A stretch of 64,000 bases of DNA from Escherichia coli. GTDB lineage: Bacteria; Pseudomonadota; Gammaproteobacteria; Enterobacterales; Enterobacteriaceae. Of the stretch, positions 57,715-63,291 are shown piece by piece (position 1 is the stretch's first letter; every line of letters begins with the position of its first letter). The notes beneath the pieces were generated by a model. It was not told the DNA's origin. It searched no databases and saw only the letters and a list, made by a program, of their open reading frames with translations. The position numbers and the translations under genes are program-made. The DNA is taken from NCBI RefSeq assembly GCF_036507355.1, contig NZ_AP027877.1; one strand, given 5' to 3'.

Positions 57715-57969
57715 ATGGAATGCCGTCCGGGTTGCGGGGCGTGTTGCACTGCCCCTTCAATTTCCAGCCCTATTCCCGGTATGCCAGATGGCAAGCCCGC
57801 CAATACGCCCTGCATTCAGCTTGATGAACAGCAACGCTGTAAAATTTTCACCTCGCCACTGCGGCCGAAAGTCTGTGCAGGCTTACAAGCCAGCGCTGAA
57901 ATGTGCGGTAACTCGCGTCAGCAGGCAATGACCTGGCTTATCGATCTGGAAATGCTGACCGCGCCTTAA
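57715..57969 (+). CDS. yeiW: small cysteine-rich protein YeiW, KCU-star family (84 aa)
   Basis: ATG at 57715 gives [14 protein letters not shown]...; the track ORF 57583..57969 is an upstream extension. Confidence 0.85.
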
Positions 57970-59147
57970 ACATCTTTAATCCGCAGTAAGCAAAACAGAG
58001 TGGCGATAATCATCACCATCGCAAACCAGAACACAGCGTGATAATTCCAGATCTCGGCGACGATGCCCGCTACAGATCCTGCGATGATCCAGCCCACGCG
58101 CGACGTGTTGGTATAGAGCGTGGTGGCTGAACCTGCCTGACCGGGCATCAAATCCTGAAAATAGAGCATCCCGATGCCGCCCAGAATGCCAATAAAAATA
58201 GCATTTAGCAGTTGCAAGCCCAACAGAATGGCAGGTGAATGCGCCATCAGCATTCCTGCGTAAAAACAGACGCCACCCACGGCAGCAACGCGCATTAAGA
58301 AACGCTTACCCAGACGTTTGGCAAAATATCCGGCAATCAACATGGTCGGGATTTCCAGCCCGGCGGCGGTCCCCATCATTACGCCTGCCAGTTTCTCGGG
58401 AAGATGCAGTTCGTTGATTATAAATAGCGGCATGTTGATGATGTACAGACTGTTCGAGCCCCACATCAATGTACAAATGACAAACAGCAGCAGCGTATCG
58501 CGACGGTTACGGCGCGGCGCTTCAAGCGTGCCGGTCGCCAGCGGAAGCTCTTTTTGCATCGACGGTAAAAACAGCCACACCATCACGCCGCAAACAATAA
58601 ATGCTACCGCTGCGCTCAGATACATTACCGTAAAGCTGAACCCCATCGCTAAGGCATAAGCCAGCGGTGGGCCAATGACCCATGCCAGTGAAACCTGAGC
58701 GCGTAAAAAAGAGCTGAACATCACCGCCTCACGTCCGGTTTTGTCGGCATGTTCACGGGCAAGGGCAAACATTTGCGGGTTAGCGGTCGAGCCAAAGCTG
58801 CTAAGAAAGACGCCAACGAATAGCAAAACAAAGTAGTTGCGATTCCAGGCAAAAAGGGTGCAGGCCAGCACGCCTAACAGGCAGCAAAAGACAATCAGCG
58901 ATTTGCGATCGCCGCGCTTATCAGAGCGCCCGGCGAGAAACTGACTCACCAGAATCCCAATGACAGCGCTGCCGGTAAAGAAGAATCCCACCATCGCCGG
59001 ACGGGCATGTACTTCATCGGTAAGAAAAATACTGAGTGTCGGGGTTTGCAGAGCGCCCGCAATACCGGTGAGAAAGGCAACGATTAAAAACGCCGTCGAG
59101 GTCAGGTCAAACGATTTCGCGCTGGAGACTGCGGGGGAGTTATGCAT
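57966..59147 (-). CDS. setB: sugar efflux transporter SetB, MFS (393 aa)
   Basis: ORF track; 12-TM MFS; stop overlaps yeiW stop (TTAA). Confidence 0.92.
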
Positions 59148-59412
59148 GCTGGTCGATCACTGGAAGAGGAAGACGCGGAGTTTACGCTGCTTGTCAGAAA
59201 ATAAACAGACAGCGAAATCAAAAGCGCCACGAATAATCAAAATGCCATTTCACTGTTGCTGATTGGCTGCTGACGCTGCTGAAATGAAATTGCTGATAAC
59301 GGATTTTCCCATCAGCAATTAGGAAAAATGACAAAAAATTGTGCAGCACATCAAACTTTTGCTCATAACTTTACGGCTTTCCTTGCGTGCTGAAACAGAA
59401 GTATTATGCTTT

Positions 59413-59500
59413 CTTGAAACGTTTCAGCGCGATCTTGTCTTTAACCCTAAGCCAGGTTGGCGCTTTTTTTCTCATAGAAGCTGAATCGTTTCAATTCAGC
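59413..59500 (+). promoter_or_regulatory. fruB control region with two Cra/FruR-type operators: CTTGAAACGTTTCAGCG (59413-59429) and GCTGAATCGTTTCAATTCAGC (59480-59500)
   Basis: Palindromic TGAAWCGTTTCA cores read directly; second site lies in the leader 15 bp upstream of the fruB ATG. Confidence 0.7.
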
Positions 59501-59514
59501 AAGAGAGGAGAACT

Positions 59515-60645
59515 ATGTTCCAGTTATCCGTACAGGACATCCATCCGGGCGAAAAGGCCGGAGACAAAGAAGAGGCGATTCGCCAGGTCGCTGCGGCGCT
59601 GGTGCAGGCCGGTAATGTAGCAGAAGGCTACGTCAATGGCATGCTGGCGCGCGAACAGCAAACCTCAACGTTCCTCGGCAATGGTATTGCTATTCCACAC
59701 GGCACTACCGACACCCGCGATCAGGTGCTGAAAACCGGCGTTCAGGTATTTCAGTTCCCGGAAGGCGTCACCTGGGGTGACGGTCAGGTAGCGTACGTAG
59801 CGATCGGTATTGCTGCCAGCTCGGATGAGCATCTGGGCCTGCTACGCCAGCTGACCCACGTACTGAGCGATGATTCCGTTGCTGAACAACTGAAGTCAGC
59901 AACAACAGCAGAAGAACTTCGCGCATTGCTGATGGGCGAAAAGCAGAGTGAGCAGTTGAAGCTCGACAACGAAATGCTGACGCTGGATATCGTCGCCAGC
60001 GATCTGCTGACTCTTCAGGCGCTGAACGCTGCGCGTCTGAAAGAAGCGGGGGCAGTTGACGCCACTTTCGTCACCAAAGCCATCAATGAACAACCGCTGA
60101 ACCTCGGACAGGGCATCTGGCTGAGCGATAGCGCCGAAGGCAATCTGCGTAGCGCGATTGCGGTAAGCCGTGCGGCAAATGCTTTTGATGTGGACGGCGA
60201 AACGGCAGCCATGCTGGTGAGTGTGGCGATGAATGACGATCAGCCCATTGCGGTTCTTAAGCGTCTCGCTGATTTGTTGCTCGACAATAAAGCTGACCGC
60301 TTGCTGAAAGCGGATGCGGCAACGTTGCTGGCGCTGCTGACCAGCGATGATGCGCCGACCGACGACGTGTTAAGCGCGGAGTTTGTGGTGCGCAATGAAC
60401 ACGGCCTGCATGCTCGTCCAGGTACCATGCTGGTCAACACCATTAAACAATTTAACAGTGATATTACCGTGACAAACCTTGATGGCACCGGCAAACCGGC
60501 AAACGGACGTAGTCTGATGAAAGTTGTGGCACTTGGCGTTAAGAAAGGTCATCGCCTACGCTTTACCGCCCAGGGTGCAGATGCTGAACAGGCGCTGAAA
60601 GCAATCGGCGACGCTATCGCTGCTGGTCTTGGGGAGGGCGCATAA
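59515..60645 (+). CDS. fruB: fructose PTS multiphosphoryl transfer protein FruB (IIA-FPr) (376 aa)
   Basis: ORF track; IIA-Fru domain and C-terminal HPr-like domain (GLHARP). Confidence 0.93.
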
Positions 60646-61583
60646 TGAGCAGACGTGTTGCTACTATCACCCTTAATCCGGCTTATGACCTTGTTGGTTT
60701 CTGTCCGGAAATTGAACGCGGCGAAGTGAACCTGGTGAAAACCACCGGTCTGCATGCGGCGGGTAAAGGCATCAACGTGGCCAAAGTATTAAAAGACTTG
60801 GGAATTGATGTCACCGTTGGCGGCTTCCTCGGTAAAGACAATCAGGATGGTTTTCAGCAACTGTTCAGCGAGCTGGGCATTGCCAACCGTTTCCAGGTTG
60901 TACAGGGGCGCACCCGAATTAACGTTAAGCTGACGGAAAAAGACGGCGAAGTGACCGACTTCAACTTCTCGGGTTTTGAAGTCACCCCCGCCGACTGGGA
61001 ACGCTTTGTGACTGATTCTCTGAGCTGGCTCGGTCAGTTCGATATGGTCTGTGTCAGCGGAAGCTTACCGTCAGGCGTCAGCCCGGAAGCGTTCACCGAC
61101 TGGATGACTCGCCTGCGTAGTCAGTGTCCTTGCATTATCTTTGATAGTAGCCGTGAAGCGTTAGTAGCAGGTTTGAAAGCGGCACCGTGGCTGGTGAAAC
61201 CTAACCGCCGCGAGCTGGAAATCTGGGCAGGCCGTAAACTGCCTGAAATGAAAGATGTGATTGAAGCTGCGCATGCGCTGCGTGAACAAGGTATTGCGCA
61301 TGTCGTTATTTCACTGGGTGCCGAAGGCGCGCTTTGGGTTAATGCCTCCGGCGAATGGATCGCCAAACCACCGTCAGTCGATGTCGTAAGCACCGTTGGC
61401 GCAGGGGATTCTATGGTTGGTGGCCTGATTTATGGCTTGCTAATGCGTGAATCCAGTGAACACACACTGCGTCTGGCGACTGCTGTTGCAGCCCTGGCGG
61501 TAAGTCAAAGCAATGTGGGTATTACCGATCGTCCGCAGTTGGCCGCAATGATGGCGCGCGTCGACTTACAACCTTTTAACTGA
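60645..61583 (+). CDS. fruK: 1-phosphofructokinase FruK (312 aa)
   Basis: ORF track; PfkB ribokinase family GAGD motif; start overlaps fruB stop (TAATG). Confidence 0.93.
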   Translation: MSRRVATITLNPAYDLVGFCPEIERGEVNLVKTTGLHAAGKGINVAKVLKDLGIDVTVGGFLGKDNQDGFQQLFSELGIANRFQVVQGRTRINVKLTEKDGEVTDFNFSGFEVTPADWERFVTDSLSWLGQFDMVCVSGSLPSGVSPEAFTDWMTRLRSQCPCIIFDSSREALVAGLKAAPWLVKPNRRELEIWAGRKLPEMKDVIEAAHALREQGIAHVVISLGAEGALWVNASGEWIAKPPSVDVVSTVGAGDSMVGGLIYGLLMRESSEHTLRLATAVAALAVSQSNVGITDRPQLAAMMARVDLQPFN

Positions 61584-61599
61584 CAGCAGGAGAGGCATA

Positions 61600-63291
61600 A
61601 TGAAAACGCTGCTGATTATTGACGCTAATCTCGGTCAGGCACGCGCCTATATGGCGAAGACCCTGCTGGGCGCGGCGGCGCGAAAAGCAAAACTGGAAAT
61701 CATCGACAATCCGAACGACGCAGAAATGGCGATTGTTCTCGGTGATTCCATCCCGAATGACAGCGCGCTGAACGGTAAAAATGTCTGGCTGGGCGATATT
61801 TCCCGGGCAGTTGCGCACCCTGAGCTGTTCCTGAGTGAAGCCAAAGGCCATGCGAAACCTTACACTGCGCCGGTCGCTGCGACAGCACCGGTTGCCGCCA
61901 GCGGTCCGAAACGCGTAGTTGCGGTGACTGCTTGCCCGACTGGCGTAGCACACACCTTTATGGCGGCTGAAGCCATTGAAACCGAAGCGAAAAAACGTGG
62001 CTGGTGGGTGAAAGTTGAAACCCGTGGTTCTGTTGGTGCGGGTAATGCAATCACCCCCGAAGAAGTAGCCGCAGCGGATCTGGTGATTGTGGCGGCAGAT
62101 ATCGAAGTGGATCTGGCGAAATTTGCTGGTAAACCGATGTATCGTACCTCTACCGGTCTGGCGCTGAAGAAAACCGCGCAGGAACTGGATAAAGCGGTTG
62201 CTGAAGCAACGCCGTATGAACCGGCGGGCAAAGCTCAAACGGCGACCTCTGAAGGTAAGAAAGAGAGTGCAGGCGCATACCGTCACTTGCTGACGGGCGT
62301 CTCTTACATGCTGCCGATGGTCGTTGCAGGTGGTCTGTGTATCGCGCTTTCTTTTGCTTTTGGTATCGAAGCGTTTAAAGAGCCGGGTACGTTGGCAGCG
62401 GCGCTGATGCAGATTGGTGGTGGTTCAGCCTTTGCGCTGATGGTGCCGGTACTGGCAGGTTACATTGCCTTCTCCATTGCCGATCGTCCGGGTCTCACGC
62501 CGGGTCTGATTGGCGGTATGCTGGCGGTCAGCACCGGTTCTGGCTTCATTGGCGGTATTATTGCGGGCTTCCTGGCTGGTTACATTGCGAAGTTAATCAG
62601 TACGCAACTGAAACTGCCACAGAGTATGGAGGCGCTGAAACCGATCCTGATCATTCCGCTAATTTCCAGTCTGGTGGTCGGTCTGGCGATGATCTACCTG
62701 ATCGGTAAACCGGTTGCTGGCATTCTCGAAGGGTTGACTCACTGGCTGCAGACCATGGGGACTGCGAATGCGGTTCTGCTGGGGGCGATCCTCGGTGGCA
62801 TGATGTGTACTGACATGGGCGGTCCGGTAAATAAAGCAGCGTACGCATTCGGTGTGGGTCTGCTGAGTACTCAAACCTATGGCCCGATGGCGGCGATTAT
62901 GGCGGCAGGTATGGTGCCACCGCTGGCAATGGGTCTGGCAACAATGGTGGCGCGTCGCAAATTCGACAAAGCGCAGCAGGAAGGTGGCAAAGCCGCTCTG
63001 GTTCTTGGTCTGTGCTTTATTTCGGAAGGTGCAATTCCGTTTGCTGCTCGTGATCCGATGCGTGTGCTGCCGTGCTGTATCGTGGGTGGGGCGCTGACTG
63101 GCGCAATCTCAATGGCGATTGGTGCGAAACTGATGGCACCGCACGGTGGTCTGTTTGTTCTGCTGATCCCTGGCGCTATTACGCCGGTACTGGGTTACCT
63201 GGTAGCAATTATTGCCGGTACGCTGGTGGCGGGTTTGGCCTATGCCTTCCTGAAACGTCCGGAAGTGGACGCAGTAGCGAAAGCCGCGTAA
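61600..63291 (+). CDS. fruA: fructose PTS IIB'BC component FruA (563 aa)
   Basis: ORF track; duplicated IIB domains with CPTG, then IIC membrane domain. Confidence 0.93.
   Translation: MKTLLIIDANLGQARAYMAKTLLGAAARKAKLEIIDNPNDAEMAIVLGDSIPNDSALNGKNVWLGDISRAVAHPELFLSEAKGHAKPYTAPVAATAPVAASGPKRVVAVTACPTGVAHTFMAAEAIETEAKKRGWWVKVETRGSVGAGNAITPEEVAAADLVIVAADIEVDLAKFAGKPMYRTSTGLALKKTAQELDKAVAEATPYEPAGKAQTATSEGKKESAGAYRHLLTGVSYMLPMVVAGGLCIALSFAFGIEAFKEPGTLAAALMQIGGGSAFALMVPVLAGYIAFSIADRPGLTPGLIGGMLAVSTGSGFIGGIIAGFLAGYIAKLISTQLKLPQSMEALKPILIIPLISSLVVGLAMIYLIGKPVAGILEGLTHWLQTMGTANAVLLGAILGGMMCTDMGGPVNKAAYAFGVGLLSTQTYGPMAAIMAAGMVPPLAMGLATMVARRKFDKAQQEGGKAALVLGLCFISEGAIPFAARDPMRVLPCCIVGGALTGAISMAIGAKLMAPHGGLFVLLIPGAITPVLGYLVAIIAGTLVAGLAYAFLKRPEVDAVAKAA

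Follow-up and report, generated by a model that had tools for sequence, protein, structure and literature searches.

Cra (FruR) is a catabolite repressor/activator of the LacI/GalR family, and fruBKA is the operon of the fructose PTS. In the 64-kb stretch of Escherichia coli chromosome analysed here (the window), two near-identical palindromes precede fruB, and the second of them belongs to the transcribed leader. This raises two questions. Are these palindromes the operators of Cra? And, if they are, what might an operator be doing so far into a transcribed region?

The locus and its regulatory region

The window carries the divergent setB/fruBKA locus, with fruB starting at the ATG at 59515 in the list of open reading frames (Table 1). 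The spacer between setB and fruB, 367 bp long (59148–59514), is 100% identical to that of many E. coli genomes, which bears out the sequence-only reading when it states that the regulatory region is intact. It is present as a single copy in 5413 of 5426 complete genomes, and differs from that of K-12 MG1655 by three single bases, at 59236, 59331 and 59479. A 77-residue open reading frame (59387–59620) was discarded: it lies across the leader in a different reading frame, begins upstream of the transcription start and is unsupported.

Table 1. Features of the setB–fruBKA control region, in window coordinates.
Feature	Position	Strand	Sequence and remarks
setB	57966–59147	minus	
Probable CRP box	59340–59355		TGTGCAGCACATCAAA; common to the divergent setB and fruB promoters
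Core promoter	59383–59410	plus	−35 TTGCGT 59383–59388; −10 TATGCT 59405–59410 or TATTAT 59402–59407
Cra operator O1 ('proximal')	59413–59428		CTTGAAACGTTTCAGC; overlaps transcription start; published O1, 14/16 to GCTGAAACGTTTCAGC
Hairpin P1 (terminator stem)	59426–59464	plus	5′ strand starts inside O1; MFE, RNAalifold
U-tract, T7 + C	59464–59471	plus	in vivo RNA 3′ end mapped at 59471
Putative anti-Shine-Dalgarno strand (P2 5′ strand)	59466–59473	plus	UUUUUCUC; predicted to pair with 59505–59512 (RNAalifold)
Cra operator O2 ('distal')	59480–59495		GCTGAATCGTTTCAAT; 5′ leader; published O2
P3 3′ arm	59494–59500	plus	ATTCAGC; predicted to pair with GCUGAAU 59480–59486; outside the Cra box
Shine-Dalgarno sequence	59505–59509	plus	GAGGA
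Putative P2 3′ strand	59505–59512	plus	
Start codon of fruB	59515–59517	plus	
fruB-fruK-fruA	59515–63291	plus	

Two features of the setB side of the spacer deserve mention. Blocks conserved across genera are found at 59178–59252, including GGAGTTTACGC..GTCAGAAAATAAACAG and a repeated AATCAAAA motif (AAATCAAA..CACGAAnAATCAAAA.GCATTTCA); they are probably promoter or 5′ UTR elements of setB. An array of the pentamer GCTGA, the left arm of the Cra half-site, spans 59256–59318 (copies at 59258, 59269, 59278 and 59292, with an inverted TCAGC at 59312). It occurs at about ten times the random frequency, with positions relative to the CRP box kept in 77 species and a spacing mostly of 9–11 or 14 bp, a geometry which is not that of a Cra operator.

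Two palindromes that are the operators of Cra

At 59415–59426, TGAAACGTTTCA is a perfect 12-bp palindrome, the core of O1. The second site, the 21-mer GCTGAATCGTTTCAATTCAGC at 59480–59500, combines two overlapping dyads: a 16-bp Cra box, with its core TGAATCGTTTCA at 59482–59493 (centre 59487.5), and an outer pair of 7-nt arms, GCTGAAT (59480–59486) and ATTCAGC (59494–59500), centred at 59490. The sequence-only reading had placed both sites exactly. It had taken the entire 21 bp as a palindromic core, which is right for the Cra box inside them but not for 59496–59500, which lie outside the 16-bp box.

We considered as a Cra operator a 16-bp imperfect dyad GCTGAAnC/GnTTCAGC with a central CG, and O1 and O2 both have this form. 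They have two and three mismatches, respectively, to the 16-bp consensus GCTGAAACGTTTCAGC, and nothing else in the window comes within three mismatches of it. The 12-bp cores of the two sites lie 67 bp apart and share 92% identity. The pattern TGAAWCGWTTCA has exactly two matches in the window, where dinucleotide shuffles predict 0.03; none of 100 shuffles gave two, which rules out chance. The resemblance of both sites to the Cra/FruR consensus, as first proposed, is borne out. An asymmetric consensus of Cra, RSTGAAWCSNTHHW, used as a lead only, finds exact matches in the window at O1 (minus strand) and O2 (plus strand) and nowhere else, and the consensus GCTGAA halves of the two sites point toward each other.

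The same sequences, in the same system, context and positions, have been described for fruBKA of E. coli and Salmonella (Ramseier et al. 1993, cited in PMC4050194, PMC7897506 and PMC11157272). The E. coli fru region has been reported to contain O1, 5′-TGAAACGTTTCA, and O2, 5′-TGAATCGTTTCA, bound cooperatively (PMC4050194, citing Ramseier et al. 1993), while fruBproximal and fruBdistal are given as TTCTTGAAACGTTTCAGC and GAGGCTGAATCGTTTCAA (PMC11157272, Table 1). Published and present operators are identical and fall on the same sites. The sole departure from the published oligonucleotides is at 59479, where we read GAAGCTG and PMC11157272 Table 1 has GAGGCTG. Direct comparison shows A here and G in K-12 MG1655, a strain polymorphism one base outside the O2 16-mer, which is why the published distal oligonucleotide reads 'GAGGCTGAAT'.

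Another protein of the LacI family, PurR for example, might be thought to bind these palindromes, or they might have arisen by chance. The PurR box and other LacI/GalR operators have the central AAACGTTT in common with O1, which would speak for such a protein. The rest of the site tells a different story: the outer TGAA/TTCA and the GC flanks fit the Cra consensus and not that of PurR, 0.03 matches are expected by chance in 64 kb, conservation tracks fruBKA, and binding of Cra to these exact sequences has been published (PMC11157272; PMC4050194). We regard this alternative as extremely improbable, and we are highly confident that the two palindromes are the experimentally defined Cra (FruR) operators controlling fruBKA. 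As such they are known biology and an ordinary finding: the window holds an intact, textbook fruBKA control region, to which the operators themselves add nothing new.

Promoter, start site and the control by Cra

The centres of the operators have been placed at +7.5 and +73.5 from the fru start site (PMC7897506), which puts +1 at about 59414/59415; we predict a start at about 59414–59418. These centres agree with a conserved −35/−10 pair upstream of O1 and with an RNA 3′ end, discussed below, between the two sites. Both operators are thus downstream of +1. Of the placement initially proposed, 'promoter and leader', the second term is right for O2, which does lie in the 5′ leader just before the Shine-Dalgarno GAGGA at 59505–59509, but O1 overlaps the start site rather than standing in the promoter.

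In the alignment of fruB upstream regions described below, cTTGC (59382–59386) is invariant and likely to be the −35 element, and the −10 TATGCT (59405–59410) is weakly conserved as nAnACT. TATTAT (59402–59407), which comes near the −10 consensus, belongs to Escherichia only, and the other genera have nothing like a −10 there; judging from the alignment, they may rely on nAnACT, three bases downstream, which suggests that start site or promoter strength might have shifted in the lineage of Escherichia. A simple sigma-70 and terminator scan of 59100–59560 found no promoter and no terminator; it missed the former because the −35 is weak, and the latter because the stem is long and interrupted, with a long loop. 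Upstream, TGTGC-N6-aTCwAA (59340–59355) is near-invariant in the 81 aligned regions. With two mismatches to the CRP consensus this box is, by itself, statistically unremarkable in a search of the window, and we take it as the CRP box because it is conserved and because one CRP site has been reported in the fruBKA–setB spacer (PMC3105977; PMC8088597).

The −35/−10 spacer contains at 59388–59395 a perfect left half-site of Cra, GCTGAAAC, followed by a right half that is not Cra-like. It is found in Escherichia only, is replaced by GCTGAAGC in Citrobacter and Salmonella, and is not conserved beyond these. A third Cra operator was rejected at this place: there is a half-site only, and it is poorly conserved across genera.

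Cra binding, the response to fructose-1-phosphate (F1P) and the positions relative to the start site are known from earlier work (PMC4050194; PMC7897506; PMC11157272). Put together with the present coordinates, they give the established model. In the absence of fructose, a Cra dimer occupies O1, over the transcription start and within the footprint of polymerase, and competes with the binding or the escape of polymerase. A second dimer occupies O2, some 67 bp further down and inside the leader; from there, we infer, it could act only on elongating polymerase or by stabilizing the complex at O1. Uptake of fructose yields F1P (via FruBA), which binds Cra and lowers its affinity for DNA, so that the operon is derepressed, the upstream CRP site giving activation.

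The arrangement recalls the lac operon, also under a repressor of the LacI family, with its primary operator at the start and an auxiliary one downstream in transcribed DNA. The likeness stops at the oligomer: tetrameric LacI loops DNA, whereas Cra is described as a dimer (PMC11157272), and the 67 bp between the centres of O1 and O2, about 6.4 helical turns, are out of helical phase, an awkward spacing for simple looping by one tetramer. Bridging by FruK is a proposal only (PMC11157272).

Conservation of the operators

We compared the fruB loci of 80 other species of Enterobacteriaceae, 81 sequences with that of the window. All 80 upstream regions have both operators, spaced by 66–68 bp; counted from the ATG, O1 lies at −100 to −105 and O2 at −33 to −39. 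O1 GAAACGTTTCAGCG is invariant in the 81 sequences. The core of O2 takes three forms: TGAATCGTTTCA (26 sequences), the reverse complement of this, TGAAACGATTCA (54), and a symmetric TGAATCGATTCA (one). O2 thus retains its central asymmetry while its orientation flips, as would be expected if a dimer with two-fold symmetry reads the site; this echoes the statement that the effect of F1P is stronger on symmetric than on asymmetric operators (PMC7897506). The arm on the ATTCAGC side behaves in another way: it lies 2–7 nt from the O2 core according to the species, its distance to the box varying by 1–5 nt. Such variation does not fit a fixed protein half-site, but an RNA stem would tolerate it.

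Further away, both operators persist, at −101 and −34, in a relative whose FruB is 72% identical; in place of U7 its leader has a CU tract. Representatives at 48–53% identity have single Cra boxes in different layouts, and one AT-rich distant relative displays a hairpin, T7, then 8 nt, then a box identical to O2 of E. coli. Across these loci, the layout of operators and leader varies beyond the Enterobacteriaceae.

Two assemblies are probably mislabelled or contaminated. On contig CACSKA010000001.1, labelled Chryseobacterium sp. 18061, the fruB locus (84% identity) is of the usual enterobacterial kind and its leader almost matches that of 'Citrobacter sp. 18056', and a 'Raoultella' metagenome-assembled genome has a leader of the Citrobacter type.

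A terminator between the operators

Between O1 and O2 the alignment displays a third conserved block, tGGCGCaTTTTTTCTCA, at 59458–59474. The E. coli leader folds into a hairpin, P1 (an AGCGC...GCGCU stem, dG −13.6 kcal/mol), followed by U7. P1 is present in all 81 species, its dG ranging from −10.4 to −21.7 kcal/mol (mean z −3.0), and in each of them 4–7 of the next 8 nt are U. Folding of the 81 sequences with RNAalifold gives the same three helices, P1, P2 and P3, as the E. coli fold. The paired alignment cells amount to 90.8%, against 45–63% when the partners are slid by 1–3 columns; 76 cells are changed on both sides, against 6–18 when slid, and the covariation score is 0.171 against 0.04–0.08. 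Not one of 500 shuffles attains such figures.

The stem of P1 varies a great deal in sequence, with 37 haplotypes across genera; base variants by genus are GCGTCA/TGACGC, GCGTCA/TGGCGC, GCGCTA/TAGCGC, GCGCTG/CAGCGC and GCGTTA/TAACGC. Double changes number 26, 22 and 4 at pairs 23–54, 24–53 and 25–52, respectively. One pair is CG in 31 sequences, UA in 26 and UG in 21, and is broken in none; the frequency of such U-G pairs makes the covariation signal specific to RNA of the fruB sense. Escherichia has the weakest terminator stem, with a G-G mismatch at 59431/59459.

RNA ends where this structure predicts. The Term-seq data that Adams et al. 2021 tabulate in their supplement (PMC7815308) place an RNA 3′ end at MG1655 2263539(−), which precedes fruB by 44 nt. 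It appears under all three growth conditions, the read counts for two of these being 218310 and 431335. The intrinsic-terminator score of this end is 9.61, where at least 3 predicts intrinsic termination, and the Rho score, 0.26, is not significant. As fruB of MG1655 occupies 2262365–2263495, this end corresponds to 59471 in the window (the conversion was verified), the C right after T7. It resembles the intrinsic terminators in 5′ UTRs of the ispU type described in the same work: a stem-loop with a U-run, a strong 3′ end, low Rho and a high terminator score. It is unlike them in being set between two repressor operators, and in a U-tract that may double as an anti-Shine-Dalgarno strand.

The main text of PMC7815308 never mentions fruB, and the 3′ end is only a row in a supplementary table. 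For enterobacteria we found no fruB attenuator, leader RNA, sRNA or RIL-seq signal in the accessible literature, and an Rfam scan of 59100–59700 at E ≤ 10 returned noise and no family. We are confident that the leader terminator is real, albeit uncharacterized. Conserved and apparently unstudied, it is the sole part of the region that a specialist might not expect. The short leader RNA is very abundant in LB and in other media, a point against the Cra model as it stands: under conditions in which the operators should be occupied, some initiation would seem to go on.

A classical attenuator would have an alternative antiterminator fold. This was rejected: pair probabilities of P1 are 0.94–1.0 in the 58-nt RNA and no antiterminator fold competes with it. 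Any regulation of the leader terminator would hence need a trans factor.

A helix that may mask the Shine-Dalgarno sequence

Palindromes that are operators in DNA, together with their flanks, may also act as RNA. According to this second layer of reading, P1 would terminate most transcripts at 59471, and those reading through would be poorly translated, with the U-tract region pairing to the Shine-Dalgarno sequence (P2) and enclosing P3, made of O2 and of the extra arm. P3 is present in the minimum free energy (MFE) fold of E. coli. The joint proposal has our slight preference.

The terminator is its firmest part, with a Rho-independent Term-seq 3′ end exactly at the U-tract, a terminator score of 9.61, a hairpin in all 81 species, and a strong covariation in which G-U pairs are strand-specific. 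The masking helix P2 is less certain. In the RNAalifold register, P2 has 19 cells with double changes against 4.3 in shuffles (0 of 500 reaching it), including compensatory switches from U-A to A-U at two positions (10 and 7 sequences, respectively). These come from few lineages, perhaps two to four independent events, so that covariation remains modest. The MFE fold of E. coli favours a register of P2 shifted by 2, which has zero covariation and was rejected in favour of that of RNAalifold; that the MFE register is without such support also weighs against the proposal. The core of the Shine-Dalgarno sequence has a predicted pairing probability of 0.92 in the native leader but still of 0.71 once the upstream sequence is shuffled, a U-rich tract pairing with any purine-rich Shine-Dalgarno sequence.

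As for P3, its GCUG/CAGC pairs are invariant across the alignment. Conservation of the CAGC arm despite indels argues for a role as RNA, yet pairs that never vary could be conserved by the DNA operator alone. Lack of an Rfam family, and of an antiterminator fold, which leaves regulation unexplained, are two further points against the RNA-level proposal. Finally, the RNA copies of O1 and O2 (59407–59428 with 59480–59501) are 82% complementary over 22 nt, because the operators are near-identical palindromes; for several species the predicted fold joins them to each other in place of the local hairpin of O2, a possible alternative conformation of the leader.

Does the downstream operator act on termination?

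The stem of P1 and O2 are 16 nt apart in 79 of the 81 species, in a leader where neighbouring segments carry indels. With this distance Cra would sit 9 bp beyond the U-tract and collide with the terminating polymerase. It may thus be proposed that O2 is a roadblock coupled to the terminator: Cra would slow down or stall polymerase on the U-tract and raise termination, and F1P would remove Cra and allow read-through. Besides the constant distance, several observations are in favour of this proposal. O2, at +73.5, cannot block initiation. The AT-rich distant relative has kept the order of hairpin, T7, 8 nt and a box identical to O2. In Vibrio cholerae a 107-nt leader RNA, IGR4, extends from the fruB start site to about 17 nt before the operator O3, and mutation of O3 slightly raises expression in glucose (PMC7897506; PMC8088597).

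Yet the argument is purely geometric, and geometry can also be turned against it. A polymerase with its active site at 59471 already overlaps O2, while a stall further upstream would keep the 3′ strand of the stem within the RNA-DNA hybrid and could oppose formation of the hairpin. The geometry of P2 and P3 as RNA explains the constant spacing equally well, and the relative at 72% FruB identity keeps both operators with a CU tract and not U7. A roadblock of this kind seems unlikely to us.

The more general idea, that fruBKA is under Cra and under a conserved leader module, with an efficient terminator releasing an abundant leader RNA (about 57 nt, 3′ end at 59471), a U/C mask of the Shine-Dalgarno sequence and Cra on O2 tuning termination, is one we put forward tentatively, as less likely than not.

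Kindred systems

The fruB region of V. cholerae is close to that of E. coli: its operators follow the same consensus, one of them covering the start site and another lying deep in the leader, a CRP site stands upstream, and the leader gives rise to the short RNA IGR4 (PMC7897506; PMC8088597). It differs in having a third operator, situated in the −35/−10 spacer and mediating activation by FruR-F1P, in a leader of about 240 nt and in an adjacent fruR. At the place of this activating operator, called O1 in V. cholerae, E. coli has only the non-conserved half-site GCTGAAAC noted above. PfruB of Pseudomonas putida also has a Cra operator downstream of the start (+19.5) and F1P as inducer (PMC4050194); unlike in E. 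coli this site is single, with no second operator in the leader.

Consequences for the biology of fruBKA

Biosensors are built with PfruB and OfruB as parts, and Cra itself finds use as a 'glycolytic flux sensor'. If a strong terminator and a helix masking the Shine-Dalgarno sequence do operate in the native leader, they would affect the reporter fusions and the synthetic constructs that retain it. Located between the two operators, they would also provide the downstream operator with a function that can be tested. Were the whole leader module to be true, O2 would act on elongation and not on initiation, a mechanistic role for an operator placed in a leader, and the same logic could explain the hitherto unexplained leader RNA IGR4 of V. 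cholerae.
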